A stretch of 44,467 bases of DNA from Candidatus Kaiserbacteria bacterium CG10_big_fil_rev_8_21_14_0_10_49_17 (GCA_002778575.1 PFBJ01000004.1:2084-46550); one strand, 5' to 3'. Counted from the stretch's first letter, positions 2,644-12,245 are shown. Program-made: numbers and translations. The notes: generated by a model from the sequence alone, not told the origin.

Positions 2644-3594
2644 CTATTCTAAAGACAGCGAAACTATTGGGAACAGTCGTGCGTGCGGATAATCATCAGC
2701 AGTTTGTTTGTCAGAGATGTGAAAATATTTTCCAATGAGCGCCGTGAGAGTCTCTTCATCCGACGGCGACCAGTTTCGATATGAATGTGCATCTGCGGCA
2801 AGTGACGCGCGAACATCCTCAAGAATCGGGTCACGCAGGTTCTCATCACGAATAAATGCATCAAACGCTGCAAGAGACTGAGGGCGATCATAGTGTCGCT
2901 TTGTCGTGTCAGCAAAATACCAAACACTCTGAAGACGCAACAGTGCACTCTTTTCAACCTCTGTTACGGGAGAGGACAGTATTGAGATAGTCATATCCCT
3001 AAAGTTTTGCTCTTGAAAATAATCATCAATAAAAAAGAGTCGTGTAATTAATCGACCGTCGGGAGCTAAAAGTGATTGCATACGCTGTAGCAACGCTTCT
3101 TCACGAGCCGGTGAGACTTGGTGAAGTGCAACATCGCCAAGAATCACATCAAAAAAGTGATCTGGAAATGGAAGCCGTGTCCAATCATCTTTTATCCATC
3201 GCTCTTTTTCAGGATCAACTAATTCAGTAAATCGGAGCATTGCCGCAGGCATACTCGGAGCAAAATCAGCAACAAAGACATCCGCACCAGTTCGTGCCGC
3301 GCAATCTCGAAGCTCTGGTGTTGAACCGAGTATTAAAATACGTTGCGCAGAGCAGGCTGCGAGCATATCGCGGTAGATACGCAGTTCAGTTACGCTTGGC
3401 CGAATTGGAGGTGGGTACCGCCCCCAGAGGCGTGCCATGCGTTCCCAGTATGCAAGGTGTGCAGTGCCGCGCATGTCTCGCCCGTTCCGCTTCATTAGTG
3501 CAGAGTGTACCGCTGTGTCAAGTTCATATAATCCAGCATCATCGAGGAGTCCGGGAATGCGGCGTATCCAGTATCGTAAAATGGAGTATTTCAT
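2644..3594 (-). CDS. Class I SAM-dependent methyltransferase
   Basis: ILILGSTPELRD (motif I variant), VADFA, DWTRLPFPDHFFDVILGD, LLAPDGRLI. Confidence 0.8.
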   Translation of the reverse strand: MKYSILRYWIRRIPGLLDDAGLYELDTAVHSALMKRNGRDMRGTAHLAYWERMARLWGRYPPPIRPSVTELRIYRDMLAACSAQRILILGSTPELRDCAARTGADVFVADFAPSMPAAMLRFTELVDPEKERWIKDDWTRLPFPDHFFDVILGDVALHQVSPAREEALLQRMQSLLAPDGRLITRLFFIDDYFQEQNFRDMTISILSSPVTEVEKSALLRLQSVWYFADTTKRHYDRPQSLAAFDAFIRDENLRDPILEDVRASLAADAHSYRNWSPSDEETLTALIGKYFHISDKQTADDYPHARLFPIVSLSLE

Positions 3595-3638
3595 ATCTCT
3601 GGGTAGTACACATCGCTATGGTATCATACTGATTACCA

Positions 3639-4907
3639 ATGACGCCGATGAGCCTTGCGGAGATAATTCGCTACACATGGGAACATTCTTCATTTTATCG
3701 AGCATTTTGGGGTGAACATGGATTTTCCCCGGAGCAATTCGGTACTGTAGATGATCTCCACGCTATACCTATCCTAACCAAGGAAAGGCTTGCACAGGTA
3801 CCGCTTTCTGAGCGGACAATTAAAACTCCTGGGACTGCACACTATTTGGCCGATATTTCAAGCGGGACAACTCAAACCCCGCTTGTTGTCCTAAAATCTA
3901 ACCACATTCCGTCTGCACACTTTGCGTATGCACAAGCGAGAGCTGGTGCCTGTCAGTCAGCTATGGTGCTTCGCCCGGGTGTATTTGGAACTGCATTCCT
4001 CCACGGTGGTATGAATGCCGGCTACTTCCCACGCGGATCAACAGTGAGTATGGGAGACCCGCGCGATATCCCCTTCTCTGCTTACCTCGCAAAAGAGATT
4101 GCCATGGACTTCCTCGTTGCGCGCCCATCTGATGCAATTCGTCTCGCCCACGCCCTTACAGTTGTTGGCTATTCACCTGAGCGAGTCACAACAATCTGCT
4201 GTTCAGGAGAGCCTCTAACCACGGCGAGCGCGTCGCTCTTATCAGACTTATACCCAACCGCAACAATTCTCTTTGCCTACGGAATGACTGAGTGTCCAGC
4301 ATTCCTTGGTCTGCGTACTTCAAACTGCACGACACTCAGCACGATTGGTCCTGGTACATATCACCTTGATACTGATGCGTTTTACTTTGAGGAGTATGAC
4401 GGTCGAGCACTTATAACGACACTGGTACCGCTACCGACACCACTTATCCGATATGACACCGGCGATCAAATACAAATGAGTAAAACTGTTTCGTGCGCGT
4501 GCGGGTATACATCGGGGCTCATCGGAAGTGTTGGGCCTCGCACGACGCATGCGTATAAAATAGGCGGATGTTCCTTTTCACTTACCGCAGTACGTCAAGC
4601 TTTAGCGACTTTAGAGGGTCTCGTTACAGACGATTTTCGATTAGAGATAGAGCAGGTGCGCACACCGGCAGACACTCTTGCGCTTGATATACGCCTTGCC
4701 ATTCGGCCAGCAGGAGTAGCAACTCCGCTTCTCATTGAATCAGTACTGCAGGCGCTCAAACAGATGCCGGTACAGAAAACGCGCTCTCTCGGTGATGCTC
4801 TTGAAAGCACGCTCATCCGAAACCTTGAAATTATTCCTGAAAGTACAGTATCGGGCGCCGCATTAGTACCACCTCAGGAAATTACCAACGCATTTAAGCA
4901 AACCTAG
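3639..4907 (+). CDS. PaaK/phenylacetate-CoA-ligase-like adenylate-forming enzyme
   Basis: SFYR...DLHAIPILTK, SSGTTQTP P-loop, SGEPL, YGMTE, PLIRYDTGD, CACG. Confidence 0.8.
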   Translation: MTPMSLAEIIRYTWEHSSFYRAFWGEHGFSPEQFGTVDDLHAIPILTKERLAQVPLSERTIKTPGTAHYLADISSGTTQTPLVVLKSNHIPSAHFAYAQARAGACQSAMVLRPGVFGTAFLHGGMNAGYFPRGSTVSMGDPRDIPFSAYLAKEIAMDFLVARPSDAIRLAHALTVVGYSPERVTTICCSGEPLTTASASLLSDLYPTATILFAYGMTECPAFLGLRTSNCTTLSTIGPGTYHLDTDAFYFEEYDGRALITTLVPLPTPLIRYDTGDQIQMSKTVSCACGYTSGLIGSVGPRTTHAYKIGGCSFSLTAVRQALATLEGLVTDDFRLEIEQVRTPADTLALDIRLAIRPAGVATPLLIESVLQALKQMPVQKTRSLGDALESTLIRNLEIIPESTVSGAALVPPQEITNAFKQT

Positions 4908-5101
4908 TTTCGGTGTGCGCGCCACGCACGTGCCAGATGCACGATGAGTGTCAGCACGACCAAAACAAGGACGCCCCACCATACTGCCGTTGCAACATCA
5001 ATATGCGCAATAATACATTTCTGCGCAGGCGTAAGCGTGGTCGGCGATGCGCCTTCAAGACCGCGCAACACGATGAGTTGACTGCTTGTTGTGTTAGTCA
5101 T
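4904..5101 (-). CDS. Small single-TM membrane protein (65 aa)
   Basis: ATG overlaps the stop of the upstream HTTM gene (coupling); C-terminal hydrophobic helix followed by a basic tail. Confidence 0.5.
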   Translation of the reverse strand: MTNTTSSQLIVLRGLEGASPTTLTPAQKCIIAHIDVATAVWWGVLVLVVLTLIVHLARAWRAHRN

Positions 5102-6392
5102 AGATATTTTCTACTGGATAGCCGACGACTTCCGGTTCATCTGAGTGAGTTTTAATCCAATCATTGTGTGTCAATGGACGGTATTGAAGAGCGCAAAGCT
5201 CGTCGGTGTCTACGATTCGCAAAAACGGCCCCCCGTTTATTGAGTGGTCGAATGTCCACGCGGCACTCTGAATATGTGCAGCGTTGCGTTTGCAAAATGC
5301 ATTAAGACGGAACCAATAGCGGTATGGCTCACACCGCGCTCGAGCATTCGCACTTTCATTGTATATAACCTGTTCACTACCGTCCGTAAATGTAATGCGT
5401 GCTGTCGAGATGCATTGATGGTTCGATTCAAACATATACAAGCCGTATTTATTTCCCTCGAGGGTTAACTTTTCATCACCAGGAATAAAAAGTGGCAAAG
5501 ACTGCATGCATACGAGAAGCCCTACAAGCACCCAACCAGCAATAGAACGACGATCAAATGGGATTGGTGTCTTTCGATAAAAAAGCCCGAATAGAATGAT
5601 GAGCGTCGGAAGAACAACTGACGGATAGTGATACTTCACCAAGATTCCGGAGTAGAGGTGGAATGCTATAAAAAATACGAGGACGAGGCGTTGCACTAGG
5701 CCCGGCCGAGAGAGGAGGAACCACGCGCCCACCATTTCCATAAAAATGACAAGATTTGTCCAGAATGGAATCGACCAATCAGGGAAAAGTGGCAATCCGG
5801 TTTGAAGCGCTGAGAAGTATGTCCCTGCCACCCAGGCTGGGTGAATTTTTGCCACCGTAGAGAGCGCATAAAATAAAACGAAACAGAGCTTCAAGAAAAA
5901 CTCTTTATGGGGCAAGAACAATAGAATGGTAGTTAATACAAAAAGGTAATAATCGTAATTGCCACCAAGCTGACCTGAGAGAATAAATGTCGCTAACGCA
6001 TGCCAAAGGTACATAAGGACAATAGACATGTGCGCAAGGACCCACTCTTTGCGATACATAAGATAAACCGCAATAAGCATGAGGCCGAAAAGCCCCATAT
6101 AGAGAACCGTCTGAGAGTATCCATTTGGTAGACCGTGCAAGAAGAGCCAGTCCGTACACCCCTGAAAGTACGGTCGGCATACAGCGTATCCTTTCTCAAC
6201 AGCATCCGCAGTGAGAACAGTGCTTGAAACCCAAAAGCTGAATGTCGTGAAGTATGAAAAAAGTGAAGCGCCGAAGACCCACTTCAATACGAGCTCTTTT
6301 TCAAGTTCTTGGATTGAAAAAAAGCGTTGGTATGCATGAATAATGCGTTGATCGAACGTCGTTGGGAACAGTTTCTTAAGGAGTTGCGTCAT
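5094..6392 (-). CDS. HTTM-domain, vitamin-K-dependent gamma-carboxylase (VKGC)-like membrane protein
   Basis: Multi-TM. Motifs STVAKIHPAWVAG (cf. VKGC/HTTM AKL..DW..G), E...LL...R...FH, EGNKYGLYMF, and soluble C-terminal SINGGPFLRIVD...YRPLTHNDWI (cf. VKGC S.N.R.Q.lvDP...w.Pf....W). Confidence 0.75.
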   Translation of the reverse strand: MTQLLKKLFPTTFDQRIIHAYQRFFSIQELEKELVLKWVFGASLFSYFTTFSFWVSSTVLTADAVEKGYAVCRPYFQGCTDWLFLHGLPNGYSQTVLYMGLFGLMLIAVYLMYRKEWVLAHMSIVLMYLWHALATFILSGQLGGNYDYYLFVLTTILLFLPHKEFFLKLCFVLFYALSTVAKIHPAWVAGTYFSALQTGLPLFPDWSIPFWTNLVIFMEMVGAWFLLSRPGLVQRLVLVFFIAFHLYSGILVKYHYPSVVLPTLIILFGLFYRKTPIPFDRRSIAGWVLVGLLVCMQSLPLFIPGDEKLTLEGNKYGLYMFESNHQCISTARITFTDGSEQVIYNESANARARCEPYRYWFRLNAFCKRNAAHIQSAAWTFDHSINGGPFLRIVDTDELCALQYRPLTHNDWIKTHSDEPEVVGYPVENIYD

Positions 6393-6442
6393 ACGATTTC
6401 TTGCATTATGTCAGAAAATGACACGAAGAGGGAGCGTGAAAT

Positions 6443-6470
6443 AAAGCCGGTCGCATTCGCGACCGGCTTT
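6443..6470. terminator. Intrinsic terminator hairpin after the AstA-like gene
   Basis: AAAGCCGGTCGC-attc-GCGACCGGCTTT. Confidence 0.75.
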
Positions 6471-6473
6471 TCT

Positions 6474-7223
6474 CTATACCGCCTGCTCAAGCGCATCCGC
6501 CATAAACCGCTTGAGATTCGGAAGATGCTCGGAAATGGTCACATGGAATGCGTTAAGCGATGTTGGGACATACCGATGTGTTTCTTCAATTATTCCCCAC
6601 TGGAGGAAAAGCTCGAATGGTTTACGCAGAGGCGGAAACGCGCGCCCGCGCGTTTCTGTTATGACAGCCTGAGGCAATCTAGAAAGTGGGATTGGTTCAC
6701 GTGGCCATTTCTTCCAGATTGTACGCTCCATTGTTCCGAACGGGTTCTCTAAAAGTGCTGCGTACGGAACTCCAGTTACTTCAGCACCAACGCGATTCCA
6801 AAAAAGTGGGTTACCATCGGCGTCTTTGATTCCTGCCATACGCGCCCAGAGGCCACGGAGTGTTGCAGATGATTCGAATGTGTCCCACTCACGGAGAATA
6901 AGTCCAGCCAACTGCTTCAGTACACCAGAGCCGCGATACTTGGAATGGATGCACCACCCGCCAGTTCCGGTATACGGTCCATCATTATGAATCTGGAGGT
7001 GCTCGTCTTCAATCGTCAGGTACACGAAATCTGAAAAATGGGAAATCCATCCGAGCGCGACGAGACCGTCCGTATCACGAATGCTGGAAAGCACCATTTT
7101 CTTTTCAAGATGGTCGCACAACTCTACAACAGTACGCGGGTACAGCAATAGACCGCCAGCGTTCTGAGCGTAGAAAGCTAAGGCCTCTTCTGCCTGATTC
7201 GCAGAGATACGACCCAAGAGCAT
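6474..7223 (-). CDS. GNAT-fold acyltransferase related to arginine N-succinyltransferase (AstA-like)
   Basis: CIHSKYRGSGV acyl-CoA-binding motif A. ARMAGIKDADGNPLFWNRVG and WPREPIPLSRLP resemble AstA AEMRG..D..G.SPFW..LG and MPkyPIY..LL. SD AAGGAG upstream. Confidence 0.65.
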   Translation of the reverse strand: MLLGRISANQAEEALAFYAQNAGGLLLYPRTVVELCDHLEKKMVLSSIRDTDGLVALGWISHFSDFVYLTIEDEHLQIHNDGPYTGTGGWCIHSKYRGSGVLKQLAGLILREWDTFESSATLRGLWARMAGIKDADGNPLFWNRVGAEVTGVPYAALLENPFGTMERTIWKKWPREPIPLSRLPQAVITETRGRAFPPLRKPFELFLQWGIIEETHRYVPTSLNAFHVTISEHLPNLKRFMADALEQAV

Positions 7224-7257
7224 CGAACTGTCTCCTTTTAATCACTTCTCTGGGCGA

Positions 7258-7286
7258 ATACTAGTACCGCAACGCGACTGCGTCAA
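7258..7286 (-). promoter_or_regulatory. sigma70-type promoter for the AstA-like gene
   Basis: TTGACG-17 nt-TAGTAT on the minus strand. Confidence 0.6.
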
Positions 7287-8425
7287 TCACGCCTGCCGTA
7301 AAATGACCGAATAGCACCCGCCACCCTACTGACATCCCGCAATGACATCGAGTCAAAAAGTGGGAGCGAGAGAATACTTTCTGTGGCATTCTCTGCAACT
7401 GGAAAACTTCCCGCGTCCCAATGACCACCAAAAGCCTCGAAATATGGCAATGGAATTGGATAGTGCACAACTGGCTGTAGTCTCGGTATATGAGTAAACT
7501 CCCTCTTAAGATGGGTTAGCAGTGCGTCACGCTCCGCCGCCTGCACAGTATATCGGTACCAGCTCCGCACAGTTCCTTCAGCTTCAGTCGGTAGAGTAAT
7601 TTCTTTGATGTCTCGGAGTCTGTCAGTGTAGCAACTGGCAAGAGTGCGGCGATACGACAACCAGAAGGGTAAGAATGGGAGTTTGGCGTGAAGAATCGCA
7701 GCGTGCAACTCATCGAGCTTCCCATTTGTCCCGACATGTGGATACTCGTAAAACAGACGTGACGAACCATACTTCCGCAAGCGAGCCGCCAAATCCCGCT
7801 GTGAAGGATCGCGCACAAAAAGAGCGCCGGCTGCTCCTGGGCTTGAGAGGAGTTTCGTTCCTGAAAAACTAAAGCACCCAAAATCGCCAATAGTACCAAC
7901 CGGGCGTTGACTGCCAGAACTGTCAATCGAAGCACCGAGTGCTTGGGCAGCATCTTCGATTACCGGCACCTTATGCGCTCGGGCAATATGTACTACGCGT
8001 TCTATTTCACGCGAGGGTTGGCCAAAGAGGTGCGCGATAAGTATGGCACGTGTGTGTTTTGTAATTGCTCTCTGAAGCTGATGAGGGTCAAGTGACAGAT
8101 CATCTGATTGCACATCAATAAAAATGGGAGTTGCACCGAGCCATACAATTGGAGCAACGAGTGCCATGCATCCAAATGCCGGCACGATAACCTCATCACC
8201 ACGCCCTACACCGAGTACTTTAAGTGATAGTTCTATTGCATCACTACCACCACCAACACCAAGTACAGGGGCGCGCAAAAATGCAGAGAAATCCTGCTCG
8301 AAGCGACGAGTTTCAGTTACTTCATACCCATATTCAGCGCCACGAGAGAGCACGGCGCATGCTGCGTAAAACGTTAAGATGTGTTGCCGAACAGCAGTAC
8401 CTCGGCGACCAAAGACATACACCAT
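7283..8425 (-). CDS. DegT/DnrJ/EryC1/StrS PLP-dependent aminotransferase
   Basis: GSDAIELSL..LGVGRGDEVIVP, HLFG, VIEDAAQALG, FSFSGTKLL (PLP lysine), LSLPLF. Confidence 0.9.
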   Translation of the reverse strand: MVYVFGRRGTAVRQHILTFYAACAVLSRGAEYGYEVTETRRFEQDFSAFLRAPVLGVGGGSDAIELSLKVLGVGRGDEVIVPAFGCMALVAPIVWLGATPIFIDVQSDDLSLDPHQLQRAITKHTRAILIAHLFGQPSREIERVVHIARAHKVPVIEDAAQALGASIDSSGSQRPVGTIGDFGCFSFSGTKLLSSPGAAGALFVRDPSQRDLAARLRKYGSSRLFYEYPHVGTNGKLDELHAAILHAKLPFLPFWLSYRRTLASCYTDRLRDIKEITLPTEAEGTVRSWYRYTVQAAERDALLTHLKREFTHIPRLQPVVHYPIPLPYFEAFGGHWDAGSFPVAENATESILSLPLFDSMSLRDVSRVAGAIRSFYGRRD

Positions 8426-8479
8426 TACCGGTATGATAGTCTACCGCTTAAAAAAGAACCAGAGGATCAGGAGAGTGAG

Positions 8480-8779
8480 CTAACTGTCGCCGTCGCCGCT
8501 ACCGTCGCCACCACCACCGTCGCCGTCGCCACCCCACCCGTACCATCCGTACCATCCTTGAGAATAGTAATTATTTTGAGAGTAGTAGTTGCCTTGTGAG
8601 TAGTAGTTGCCTTGTGAGTAATAGGAACTTTGATTGTATGGAACATCGGCATGCGCTTCCTCAATGAATCGCGGATGTTCACCATCCTTAAAAAGTTTCT
8701 GCCCCAGGGCAATAACTGAAACAACAATAAGCGCACCGCCGAGTAAAAGAAATCGAGGTGTGTCTCTTAGGAGTTTCAT
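8480..8779 (-). CDS. Small exported/anchored repeat peptide (99 aa): hydrophobic leader, AHA-D site, YYSQGN-type hexads, GWYGWYGW, Gly/Asp tail; candidate precursor peptide
   Basis: ORF translation; the repeats are in-frame 18-nt units with synonymous variation between copies. Confidence 0.75.
   Translation of the reverse strand: MKLLRDTPRFLLLGGALIVVSVIALGQKLFKDGEHPRFIEEAHADVPYNQSSYYSQGNYYSQGNYYSQNNYYSQGWYGWYGWGGDGDGGGGDGSGDGDS
8538..8620. repeat. Coding tandem repeats in the peptide gene
   Basis: GAGTAGTAGTTGCCTTGT x2 exact (8580-8615) plus diverged flanking copies; CCGTACCAT x2 (8538-8555). Confidence 0.9.
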
Positions 8780-8814
8780 TACCTATATTGAAGCACAGAA
8801 ATGGCTTTGGTAAA

Positions 8815-9630
8815 ATGACAGATGTGAGTAATCAAATTTCGCTCCTCTTACCGCGATACGCAGGAATCGCATTCGCGCTCTTTATTGCTGTATGTGTTTT
8901 TCTGTACACAGCTCCCGGGCACGCTGCGACAATTGCCCTTCATTACCTCCACACACCTCGCCTCGCTTTCATGATTGATACGAATGCTGCGCGAGCTTTT
9001 GAAATTGGCGACTATTACTTTGAGAACCCGGCCGGCCCATATAGGCCAGATGCGGCAGCTAAGTATTTTGCCCGTACGCTATCTCTCGATCCAACACATC
9101 CACATGCCCACCACCAACTCGCGCGCATCTTTTTCTTGCGTGGCAATTTTGACAAGGCACTTGCAGAGATAAACGTACAGATTGAATTACATGGCGAATC
9201 GAGCATATCCTCTTATTACGTTCGAGGCCTTATTCTTGGCTATATGGGCCAGCCTGAGCAAGCCGAACAAGACTTCCGCCACTACCTCTCTAAACGAGAG
9301 CGAAACTGGGGTGCGTACAATGATATAGCATGGATTTACTTTCAGCTGGGAAACTTTGAGCAAATGCGGGAAGAAGCAGTGTACGGACTTCGTATTGCAC
9401 CAAATAATCCCTGGCTCTTAACAACGTATGGAGTTGCTGAAATGAATTTAGGCAATAAAGCGGCAGCAAGAGATAGTTTTGAAGCCGCACTTTCTGCTAT
9501 TGTTACTACTACGCCAGAGGAATGGTCCCGGGTAAATCCAGGTAACGACCCAGCAATTGCCGAGCGCGGGTTGGAAGAAATGCGTCGAACTATTGAGAAA
9601 AATATCGATTTACTTATCACCACCTCCTAA
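8815..9630 (+). CDS. Membrane-anchored tetratricopeptide-repeat protein
   Basis: N-terminal TM; TPR-like helices (AHHQLARIFFLRGNFDKALAE, SYYVRGLILGYMGQPEQAEQDF, AYNDIAWIYFQLGNFEQ). Start 8815 ATG or 8824 GTG. Confidence 0.8.
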   Translation: MTDVSNQISLLLPRYAGIAFALFIAVCVFLYTAPGHAATIALHYLHTPRLAFMIDTNAARAFEIGDYYFENPAGPYRPDAAAKYFARTLSLDPTHPHAHHQLARIFFLRGNFDKALAEINVQIELHGESSISSYYVRGLILGYMGQPEQAEQDFRHYLSKRERNWGAYNDIAWIYFQLGNFEQMREEAVYGLRIAPNNPWLLTTYGVAEMNLGNKAAARDSFEAALSAIVTTTPEEWSRVNPGNDPAIAERGLEEMRRTIEKNIDLLITTS

Positions 9631-9667
9631 CTGTCAGGCAACCTTAATCCGTTATACTAACATTGTC

Positions 9668-10342
9668 ATGGCATTACGACCATTAATGACTCTATTCGCA
9701 CTTGGTGCGCTTGTCATAGCTCTATCAGTTGCAATTGACACGGGCACTACAGGTAGCATGCGTGAAGCGGGACAAACGTCTGTTGAAGTTGGTGTCGCGG
9801 CCACGTCTCCACACGGAGATGGATATGTTATTCCTGCTTCGTGCGGCTCTCCACATACTGGTGATTTGTGTACACCTCCAACATTTAACTGCTCCCCTGA
9901 CGCTATAAACGAAGGCGCGGCCATCACGTGCTCGTGGCAGTGTGATAGCTCCACATCAAGCGCCGGGGTAAACTTTTCAACCGGTGGCGCCACCTCTGGC
10001 TCAGTAAATCTCACACCAAACACTAGCACCACATACACTGTTCAGTGCTCAAATGGCGGACAAGCGTCAGAGAGTGTCACAGTTCTTAATCCCGACCTCT
10101 CAATTACTGCAACTCCAGTACAAGTACGCTTCGGTGACACATCGACTATTGTCTGGGAAGCGACTGAAGTAAACAGTTGTTCGGTAACTGGTCCGAATTT
10201 CAGTGCATCTGGAACCTCTGGCAGTCAAGGTACTGGCTCAGTGACTCAAGAGAGCACGTATACGCTTTCCTGCTCAACCGACGGTGGTACGGTTTCAGAA
10301 TCAGTAACCATACGACTTATTCCGGCATTTGAAGAATTTTAG
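9668..10342 (+). CDS. Secreted Ser/Thr/Cys-rich protein with two Ig-like beta-sandwich repeats
   Basis: N-terminal TM; two repeats of T(i/c)xW...C...NFS.SG...SG...TYT(v/l)xC; C-terminal IPAFEEF. TATACT 9 nt upstream of ATG 9668. Confidence 0.7.
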   Translation: MALRPLMTLFALGALVIALSVAIDTGTTGSMREAGQTSVEVGVAATSPHGDGYVIPASCGSPHTGDLCTPPTFNCSPDAINEGAAITCSWQCDSSTSSAGVNFSTGGATSGSVNLTPNTSTTYTVQCSNGGQASESVTVLNPDLSITATPVQVRFGDTSTIVWEATEVNSCSVTGPNFSASGTSGSQGTGSVTQESTYTLSCSTDGGTVSESVTIRLIPAFEEF

Positions 10343-10391: not shown

Positions 10392-10423
10392 GAGGCGCCT
10401 TCTGAAAAGGCGCCTCTTTTTTT
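10392..10423. terminator. Terminator hairpin between convergent genes
   Basis: GAGGCGCCTT-ctgaa-AAGGCGCCTC followed by T7. Confidence 0.75.
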
Positions 10424-10733
10424 ATCGGTGCCGGCGGTGATGCCGACCACGCCTGTGATGATGTCGCCAATAGTGACGGCGGCGATTCTGCCATTGGTAT
10501 TGCTGAATGATACCTGGCACGACACGCAGGAACATGTCGAGTGCTGGGTTGTACTCGTCGTTGCGGTAGCGATACCCGTGCCAGCGCCGGTAACACCGGC
10601 GTACCCACCCGTAGTAGCTGTGGTAGGTGTTGTAGCACCGCATGTAGTAGCCGGCATTAGCCGGAGTGGCTGTCACTGGAGCAAAAACAAGCAAGCCAGC
10701 AACAATAGCGCACGCACTGAGAATCCGCTTCAT
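10422..10733 (-). CDS. Small secreted Tyr/Arg/His-rich cationic protein
   Basis: Signal peptide ending TPANA; strong SD AAGGAGG; one Cys pair; RRRHYWRHHHRRGRHHRRHR tail. Confidence 0.7.
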   Translation of the reverse strand: MKRILSACAIVAGLLVFAPVTATPANAGYYMRCYNTYHSYYGWVRRCYRRWHGYRYRNDEYNPALDMFLRVVPGIIQQYQWQNRRRHYWRHHHRRGRHHRRHR

Positions 10734-11795: not shown

Positions 11796-12245
11796 ATGTA
11801 CACAAAGCAAGGCATCGCATTGTTTCTTTTCTCTCTTGCCGGAACCCTTTTTGCAGGCTACCTCTCTATTGGCAAGTTAATCTCTTCCCGGTGTGTCATT
11901 GACTCGGGGTGCTCATATTTCCTTGGCTATCCTACGTGCTACTACGGCTTTGCACTGTTTTTTACGCTTTTTATCCTCTCTTTCATTACCCTTATGAACG
12001 GTGCGCGCGCCTCACAAAACCTTCTAAAGTGTATCGTTATTATCGCGGGTATTGGTATTCTCTTCTCTGGGTACTTTAGCGCGATCGAAGTCACTCCAAT
12101 GATTACTGAGGGTATTCGCTACAGCCTCTTCTTCCCAACGTGTGTGTACGGATTAGTCTTCTACATACTCATTGCTTGCACAGCGTGGCAAAGAAAGAGC
12201 ACGAAGAAAGCAGAGAATCCTCAGCCTGTTCAGGACGAGGTTTAA
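11796..12245 (+). CDS. 4-TM membrane protein, VKOR/disulfide-formation-like
   Basis: G.LFAGYLS, loop C-x5-C (CVIDSGC), FLGYPTCYYG, GILFSGYFSAIE. The canonical CxxC is replaced by PTCVYG. Confidence 0.55.
   Translation: MYTKQGIALFLFSLAGTLFAGYLSIGKLISSRCVIDSGCSYFLGYPTCYYGFALFFTLFILSFITLMNGARASQNLLKCIVIIAGIGILFSGYFSAIEVTPMITEGIRYSLFFPTCVYGLVFYILIACTAWQRKSTKKAENPQPVQDEV

Follow-up and report, generated by a model that had tools for sequence, protein, structure and literature searches.

The minus-strand open reading frame (ORF) at positions 8480..8779 of a 44,467-nucleotide stretch of DNA from Candidatus Kaiserbacteria bacterium CG10_big_fil_rev_8_21_14_0_10_49_17 (PFBJ01000004.1:2084-46550; the whole stretch is hereafter called the window) is a genuine gene, and a small one, from a groundwater bacterium of ultra-small size. 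According to the ORF list, the translation and the codons, it encodes a 99-amino-acid (aa) pre-peptide, with the stop codon at 8480-8482, and the hidden Markov model (HMM) of the peptide family (70 short members) matched it with an E-value of 9.1e-14. The layout given in the original prediction was exact: the peptide comprised, in order, a basic N-terminus, a hydrophobic region (h-region), FIEEAHA-DVP, YNQSS, two YYSQGN units, YYSQNN, YYSQGW, two YGW units and GGDGDGGGGDGSGDGDS. The h-region, a hydrophobic signal anchor (FLLLGGALIVVSVIALG, residues 10-26, 8702..8752; minus strand, as are all parts of the peptide), followed the basic MKLLRDTPR and was 17 residues long, with Kyte-Doolittle values of 1.65-2.05 in 19-residue windows across residues 6-30. 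The family box AHADVPYNQSSYYSQ (residues 42-56, 8612..8656) included the AxA peptidase-like site AHA-D; in the underlying alignment (A2), A44, Y48, Y53, Y54 and Y59 were invariant, and P47 and Q50 were near-invariant. Four YYSQxx hexapeptide units occupied residues 53-76 (8552..8623, by codon-level coordinates), two YGW units residues 77-82 (8534..8551), and the Cys-free Gly/Asp(/Ser) tail, as read from the translation, residues 83-99 (8483..8533), directly before the stop. Tandem Repeats Finder reported arrays at 8576-8624 in the hexapeptide units (period 18, 2.7 copies, 93% matches, score 84), at 8534-8557 in the YGW units (period 9, 2.7 copies, 93% matches) and at 8486-8533 in the Gly/Asp tail (period 15, 3.0 copies, 72% matches). 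After residue 44, the peptide contained 11 Tyr, 5 Gln, 5 Asn, 8 Ser and 15 Gly, and Glu was absent; the part after the box had 0 Cys and 8 Ser, with only 2 Ser within the tail, which held 6 Asp. No Pfam, NCBIfam or PHROG family matched the window peptide.

At the nucleotide level, two 18-nucleotide units were identical, as had been claimed, when read as YSQGNY (8582-8599 and 8600-8617); read as YYSQGN, the units differed by one synonymous change, TAT/TAC. The further statement that the other units differ mostly synonymously held for the YYSQ codons (TAT/TAC, TCA/TCT) and for GGC/GGA, but not for positions 5-6 of the unit (GGC to AAT, AAC to TGG). The overlapping frame 8467-8736 (89 aa), which had been named as a possible alternative target of selection, was not conserved: the peptide frame was open in 11 of 11 family genes, whereas the +1 frame was nearly fully open in only two, those of the window and of locus L047. 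Comparison of contigs X1-X4 with the stretch revealed zero differences; positions 8444-8651 were without independent cover, and the comparison is therefore uninformative on repeat copy number between strains.

Homologous peptides, on which the original prediction hinged, do exist. Short orthologues with a shared plan were found within the taxonomic family of the window organism; among 5.8 billion proteins, a word-indexed search returned 16 matches, named only 'hypothetical protein' and assigned to Candidatus Kaiserbacteria or Paceibacterota; and a HMMER profile scan of 1.84 billion representatives yielded 75 proteins at E ≤ 1e-3, including 18 at E ≤ 1e-10. Two matches of the latter scan, P0036 and P0060, were recognized on inspection as unrelated repeat proteins. 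Seventy of the 78 collected proteins were no longer than 135 aa (nearly all 70-135 aa) and shared the plan; together with the window peptide, they formed a set of 71 short sequences used for the anatomy of the family. In a sample of 401 genomes of the order, 10 matched at E ≤ 1e-3 and seven contained true members after inspection, the false matches being a pilin (G299), a frame with stops (G398) and a genome with no member ORF found (G066). None of 380 other genomes sampled across the phylum matched at E ≤ 1e-4. The peptide family is undescribed, and the searched samples place it in a single order of Patescibacteria (candidate phyla radiation, CPR) only. No description of the family, or of the link to an HTTM-like membrane protein considered below, was found in the literature, although the supplements of PMC7298704 and PMC12153355 may list precursors; no joint mention was found of 'HTTM' and 'YcaO' or of 'tyrosine-rich' and 'candidate phyla radiation', and for 'YYSQ' there was nothing on bacteria of this kind among the matches listed.

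The family plan consisted of a basic N-terminus, one membrane-spanning or signal segment, a linker of ~10-26 residues, the box (consensus A-x-A-[DE]-x-P-Y-x-Q-x-x-Y-Y-x-Q), 0-10 further YY(S/G/A)(Q/E)xx units, and a Gly/Asp tail, with Cys or Ser in most members. The box was detected in 69 of the 71 short sequences, and the AxA site, which had been singled out as a peptidase-like site, proved to be the best-conserved feature of a real family: position -1 was Ala in 69 of 69 boxes, and position -3 was A in 52, V in 10 and T in 7. A hydrophobic stretch upstream of the box was recorded in 54 of 71 sequences by a strict script rule, and its end was separated from the box by a median of 19 residues (range 10-26; 17 in the window peptide). 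The anticipated variation in copy number among homologues was also observed, YY counts ranging from 0 to 8: 0 in 14 sequences, 1 in 33, 2 in 12, 3 in 7, 4 in 4 (including the window peptide) and 8 in 1; a longer relative of 329 aa had 9 YY units by script count and about 10 YYSQxS by eye. The region after the box was Cys-free in 22 of 71 members and contained at least one Cys in 49. The window copy represents a Cys-free subtype, 'GW + poly(Gly-Asp)', and its two nearest relatives, P0019 and P0027, which likewise lack Cys and have a GWW junction (YGWWGG), were encoded in a single genome (G777); the tail end ...SGDGDS was common to the window peptide and P0019.

In the relatives, the peptide gene lies in a recurrent cluster (24 family genes in 22 loci; L043, with an E-value of 0.0026, fell below the cut-off of this locus table). 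A SagD-like YcaO gene was present in the locus for 18 of the 24 family genes and within 650 bases for 13, and a ~400-aa membrane-anchored, helical partner resembling tetratricopeptide repeat (TPR) proteins was located no more than 650 bases away for 17 and usually followed the peptide gene. The YcaO domain (PF02624) was above the cut-off in L024, L026, L027, L028, L031 and L034 (E-values of 7.8e-23 to 7.9e-45), the best NCBIfam match of these proteins being TOMM_cyclo_SagD (TIGR03604, below the cut-off), and the SagB dehydrogenase (TIGR03605) was above the cut-off in three loci (L027, L028 and L034). It should be noted that one HMM matched both the window peptide and the YcaO-adjacent peptides of L025, L026, L028, L042, L047 and L049. 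Further genes of the cluster encoded a ~550-aa fusion of a phosphoribosyltransferase (PRTase) and a pyrroloquinoline quinone (PQQ) propeller, a membrane-anchored rhodanese, thiol-disulfide oxidoreductases, a ~260-aa membrane-anchored TPR protein and, in certain lineages, a polytopic membrane protein of ~430-460 aa with a 65-aa membrane protein encoded after it.

The locus of the relatives is a cluster for peptides made by ribosomes and modified after translation (RiPPs) of the linear azol(in)e-containing peptide/thiazole- or oxazole-modified microcin (LAP/TOMM) type already reported for CPR bacteria. As outlined in Sharrar et al. 2020 (PMC7298704), such a cluster combines YcaO, a nitroreductase and a peptidase with an 84-aa precursor, and 110 YcaO + nitroreductase clusters were counted in another 93 CPR genomes, including 51 from Parcubacteria; a later survey also counts YcaO clusters in CPR genomes (PMC12153355). 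Relative to the cluster as outlined in the former source, that of the present family adds HTTM, PRTase-propeller, rhodanese and TPR proteins. The likeness of the family to LAP/TOMM precursors lies in the adjoining SagD-like YcaO, in the SagB of three loci and in Gly-rich tails with Cys/Ser that resemble azole cores. Tails of this type resemble McbA of microcin B17. The family differs in that its 'leader' is a membrane-spanning segment and in that a Tyr-rich box and repeats stand between the AxA site and the tail. Family members adjoining YcaO in L028, L036, L042, L048 and L049 had zero YY units and Cys/Ser-rich tails, and hence the anchor, the AxA-D-x-P box and the Gly-rich tail are the constant parts of the family, the Tyr repeats being an optional insert.

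These findings bear on the proposal that the peptide is a multi-core RiPP precursor in which each YYSQxx unit would be a modified and excised core. As this proposal would expect, the number of units varies among homologues, and in relatives the family is linked with RiPP enzymes; nevertheless, zero YY units were present in 14 of 71 short members and in 12 of 18 YcaO-linked genes, no cleavage sites were recognizable between the units, the same arrays occurred inside large unrelated proteins, the window genome contained neither YcaO nor SagB, and the other window ORFs scanned against Pfam were housekeeping, envelope or sugar-modifying genes. We consider this proposal very improbable; within the family, it is the Gly/Cys/Ser tail and not the YYSQ units that resembles an azole core.

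Several observations on the clusters of the relatives stand apart from this question. Two YcaO clusters contained 628-aa AMMECR1-domain proteins (L025:7928-9814, minus strand; L027:1253-3136, plus strand), with a match to NCBIfam AmmeMemoRadiSam protein A at an E-value of 4.6e-15, below the cut-off. In another genome (G144), a 106-aa ORF (L055:4429-4746, plus strand) adjoining a 779-aa YcaO looked by eye like a precursor of the nitrile hydratase leader peptide (NHLP) type with a Cys-rich end, which suggests that other YcaO loci of the order use other precursor types. In L024:5421-6407 (minus strand, the 329-aa protein of genome G008) and in P0017, a family peptide was fused to a C-terminal domain at a Gly-Cys junction ending the Gly/Asp tail. 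From the Cys on, the domain of P0017 matched Hint_2 (E = 4.3e-4), Hint (8.1e-4) and four more Hint-clan families, all below the cut-offs; for that of G008, there was only a Pfam Hint match with an E-value of 0.12 and Atlas features of 0.90-0.92, with no homologue at E ≤ 1e-3, no meaningful PDB match and a predicted local distance difference test (pLDDT) value of 33 when folded alone. The two domains were not alike by BLAST. Self-cleavage by a domain placed straight behind the tail would set the peptide free or transfer it.

Analysis of the window genome (643 kb, 20 contigs, 100% complete by marker genes) revealed a different situation. YcaO (PF02624) was not found at E ≤ 1, with control genomes positive, SagB (TIGR03605) was not found at E ≤ 1, and genome-wide searches found no rhodanese, PRTase-propeller or ~400-aa partner; the window peptide was the only family member in its genome. 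Thus, the RiPP-precursor idea stood for the relatives, which adjoin SagD-like YcaO and in three loci SagB, but not for the window organism, which lacks both enzymes and has a Cys-free peptide. Since two defining marks of a LAP system, YcaO and SagB, are missing from the window genome, the peptide is classed as a YcaO-independent variant and not as a LAP precursor, although by descent it appears most like a LAP/TOMM precursor. In the order sample, YcaO was present in 5 of 7 member genomes versus 37 of 401 overall. The peptide-bearing genomes without YcaO were the window genome, G001, G004 and G777; the last of these was reached via locus L087, and its record is a closed 859-kb chromosome.

It might be supposed that the window gene is a decaying remnant, unused after the loss of YcaO, SagB, rhodanese and the ~400-aa partner. 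The window genome does have the most reduced version of the cluster, and tandem repeats can expand neutrally. However, the frame was intact, the changes in the YYSQ codons between units were all synonymous, and the Cys-free GW/poly(Gly-Asp) subtype with its ...SGDGDS end was kept at 41-46% identity in another genome; we give this explanation very little credence.

All four YcaO-less peptide genomes keep an HTTM-like gene near the peptide. In the window, this gene (5094..6392, minus strand) lies 2.1 kb from the peptide gene and encodes a 432-aa polytopic membrane protein, predicted from its Atlas model to be HTTM/vitamin-K-dependent-carboxylase-like, with a Cys-containing C-terminal outer domain. 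The model (predicted template modelling score, pTM, 0.82) had a TM score of 0.75 to a cluster consisting 100% of PF05090 HTTM + PF22777 VKGC_lumenal, and by Atlas features the protein was placed with MauE/DoxX clusters (0.93-0.96); no match was found in Pfam, NCBIfam or PDB sequences. It was 48-54% identical to the products of genes beside peptides in G004 and G001 and of a gene ~4 kb from the peptide in G167. A 65-aa single-pass membrane partner is encoded at 4904..5101 (minus strand), and its homologues were located directly after the HTTM gene in L021, L023, L034, L085 and L087. By eye, the 65-aa protein was fused to the HTTM C-terminus in L026:374-1915 (minus strand, G167) and L031:5887-7350 (minus strand, G216); in L032:1203-2261 (plus strand, G261), it was joined to the N-terminal end of a 352-aa protein with a TPR260-like C-terminus. 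TPR260, a membrane-anchored TPR protein encoded by the adjacent, divergently transcribed gene on the other side of the window peptide (8758..9630, plus strand), matched Pfam TPR families with E-values down to 1.5e-16, was 34-48% identical to the products of cluster genes in L023, L026 and L027, and its HMM matched in the peptide's locus for 14 of 24 family genes. The fusions argue that the HTTM, 65-aa and TPR260 proteins work together.

The three membrane proteins may modify or process the exported peptide at the external side of the membrane, in a YcaO-independent, RiPP-like maturation, for example of the acidic tail or the Tyr box. In L021, L023 and L087, the HTTM gene, the 65-aa gene and the peptide gene followed one another on the same strand, with a rhodanese gene (in L021) and the gene of the ~400-aa partner coming next in the order. 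The HTTM-like gene was found in 4 of 7 member genomes of the order sample versus 9 of 401 overall, these genomes being partly related, and every one of the seven had either YcaO or the HTTM-like gene. Meanwhile, the chemistry cannot be read from the sequence, the tail of the window peptide is built of Asp/Gly and not Glu, no HTTM gene was present in the fetched locus for 14 of 24 family genes, and the VKOR gene near the window peptide (11796-12245) was without a counterpart in the other fetched loci; a conserved 'vitamin K cycle' of VKOR + HTTM was rejected for that last reason. We hold such maturation to be possible but improbable.

Two known systems offer partial parallels. In Bacillus subtilis, the HTTM-type polytopic membrane protein SdpB is needed to mature the exported SdpC toxin (the SdpA/SdpB system). 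SdpC is a small exported protein with an N-terminal signal and an HTTM-type protein as partner, as is proposed for the window peptide; unlike the latter, SdpC is not of low complexity. The animal enzyme GGCX modifies an acidic domain that adjoins the propeptide to which it binds. The window resembles the GGCX/Gla system in having a gene for a polytopic membrane protein with an outer 'lumenal' domain, a fold-level likeness predicted from the Atlas data, near the gene for a putatively exported, very acidic peptide, and in the conserved recognition-like box upstream of the acidic part, whereas its acidic residues are Asp and not Glu, and its VKOR is not a conserved neighbour.

The YYSQ arrays were also found outside the family. 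A metagenome scan with box patterns returned 29 loci, among which L056 was the only true member as judged by the family HMM and inspection; the HMM also matched three larger proteins, in L064, L071 and L073. About 25 of the loci encoded different, mostly larger proteins with as many as ~16-20 YY(S/A/G/T)(Q/E)xx units; some of the arrays were placed right after what by eye looked like a signal peptide ending in AHA (e.g., L081), some before a shared '...GSGTFVIDHPLDP' domain and some at the C-terminus. In the window itself, 9557-10342 (plus strand) encodes a secreted-looking 261-aa protein with two repeated Cys-containing modules and a weak match to a PHROG virion structural protein (E = 1.9e-10); its orthologue in G007 (53% identity) carried a YGQGGYYGQSSYYSQGSY insertion corresponding to the YY-repeat motif. 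In their distribution, YYSQ-type arrays look like a promiscuous extracellular low-complexity module and not like RiPP cores.

Other Tyr-repeat proteins were noted in the course of the scans. A second one in the window genome (G000 contig C6, 7623-7934, minus strand; locus L002 1456-1737) had a putative signal peptide and approximately seven YYNQ(S/T)A units, followed by masked N bases, and the ORF beside it contained the 'SPDVKNIYDG...' domain, which follows YY arrays in L006, L067, L074 and L075. In P0013 (555 aa), P0015 (520 aa) and L073 279-1937, an internal hydrophobic segment was followed by the box A-x-A-D-[VT]-P-Y-S-Q-S-S-Y-Y-S-Q, and P0013 had a Gly/Cys/Asp/Ser-rich stretch after its first hydrophobic segment; none of the three matched a Pfam family.

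That YY arrays recur in many proteins that look secreted is in keeping with a general-purpose extracellular module, sticky or spacing, and this recurrence, together with the insertion in the G007 orthologue and the Tyr/Gln/Asn/Ser/Gly-rich composition after residue 44, is what favours the amyloid- or prion-like adhesive that had been suggested, in which the repeats would stack into surface fibres or a gel and the acidic tail would bind cations. Repeats of short period with much Tyr, Gln, Ser, Gly and Asn are characteristic of the 'SYGQ' low-complexity domains of FUS/EWS and of the curli functional amyloids. Nevertheless, the window region has no homology to these (no Pfam match), is much shorter and would belong to an extracellular context. 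The Tyr/Gln/Asn/Ser/Gly stretch extends over only ~38 residues with a Q+N content of 10/38, no Pfam, NCBIfam or PHROG family was matched, known functional-amyloid families included, and since YY units are absent from 14 of 71 members, the repeats are not the essential part of the family. Self-assembly of this kind therefore seems unlikely for the window peptide, and it is weighted, as are multiple cores and a decaying remnant, below HTTM-dependent modification.

A different use of the motif is illustrated by the fungal CBM1 of Cel7A (...NPYYSQC), in which, in the account given in PMC11389687, N29, Y31, Y32 and Q34 contact cellulose, so that Tyr-Tyr-x-Gln can form a flat sugar-binding surface. 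The analogy with the Y-Y-S-Q motif covers four residues only, and the disulfide-knotted CBM1 fold differs from the Cys-free tandem array considered here. Both ideas could be joined, the HTTM, 65-aa and TPR proteins maturing the peptide outside the cell and the YYSQ arrays serving as a lineage-wide extracellular glycan- or surface-binding module; such a combination is tentative, and we would sooner doubt than adopt it.

The explanation that we prefer, with a probability of roughly 0.55, is that the window peptide is an exported, YcaO-independent derivative of a RiPP-precursor family and would serve as a sticky, cation-binding peptide of the envelope or surface. The peptide would insert N-in/C-out through Sec and would probably be cut after AHA, and the Tyr/Gln/Ser repeats and the acidic tail would act outside the cell; the three membrane proteins (HTTM, 65-aa and TPR) may handle it beforehand, and azole modification would not occur in the window organism. 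Of the elements expected of an exported peptide, the n-region MKLLRDTPR, the 17-residue h-region and AHA-D are all there, but AHA-D is located 17 residues past the h-region; an S26 signal peptidase is encoded in the window genome. By eye, a hydrophobic segment opens TPR260, the ~400-aa partner and the rhodanese, and many hydrophobic stretches run through the HTTM-like protein.

A number of points weigh against this explanation. In classical signal peptides, the cleavage site is nearer to the hydrophobic stretch than 17 residues, and cleavage by signal peptidase I at the AxA site is therefore uncertain. The adhesive, cation-binding role outside the cell is deduced from composition only. The stretch was contained in four DNA runs from groundwater, one of which may be its source, and in no RNA run listed. 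The assembly, though 100% complete by marker genes, consists of 20 contigs, and a YcaO might conceivably lie on unassembled DNA. The window genome is without the most constant partner, the ~400-aa protein, and the gene could thus be a decaying remnant. With regard to handling by the HTTM-like protein, the link with the peptide is a co-occurrence among partly related genomes, so that its Fisher values are overstatements; the assignment to HTTM comes from one source, the Atlas features and model, the sequence libraries being negative; and a model of the protein by AlphaFold2 from a 4-row alignment (pLDDT 46) was too poor for fold comparison.

CPR bacteria are attached to other cells and have few recognizable factors for surface interaction or antagonism, and the family provides a concrete set of small, putatively exported peptides. 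It occurs in two genetic contexts, either with azole-forming enzymes or with none of these and a linked vitamin-K-carboxylase-like membrane protein. To our knowledge, the bacterial members of the HTTM/vitamin-K-carboxylase-like family have no established function. If the HTTM, 65-aa and TPR proteins did mature the peptide, the family would be the first candidate substrate to be paired genetically with bacterial HTTM proteins, and would define, in CPR bacteria, a RiPP pathway branch independent of YcaO. The YY(S/A/G)(Q/E)xx hexapeptide arrays are an unannotated module common to many apparently secreted proteins of these communities, and for RiPP mining the window gene is a caution that a precursor-like peptide can outlive its tailoring enzymes.

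The interval between the peptide and the HTTM-like gene contained a DegT aminotransferase (7283-8425) and an AstA-like acyltransferase (6474-7223, a weak match), and beyond the HTTM-like gene there were a PaaK/F390-synthetase-like ligase (3639-4907) and a methyltransferase (2644-3594); these four had no counterpart in the loci of the nine relatives compared. A role in sugar or acyl modification is possible for the enzymes of 2644-8425. On the opposite side, the true start of the TPR260 gene is probably the ATG at 8815 or a later one. The peptide ATG (8779, minus strand) and the ATG at 8815 are 35 bases apart, and an extended -10 promoter-like site (8788-8816, plus strand) overlaps the latter; a later and leaderless start of the TPR gene is therefore possible. 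A putative 103-aa ORF (10422-10733, minus strand), which overlaps other ORFs and matched no Pfam, NCBIfam or PHROG family, had a signal-peptide-like N-terminus and a Tyr/Arg/His-rich composition with a HHHRRGRHHRRHR-type tail.

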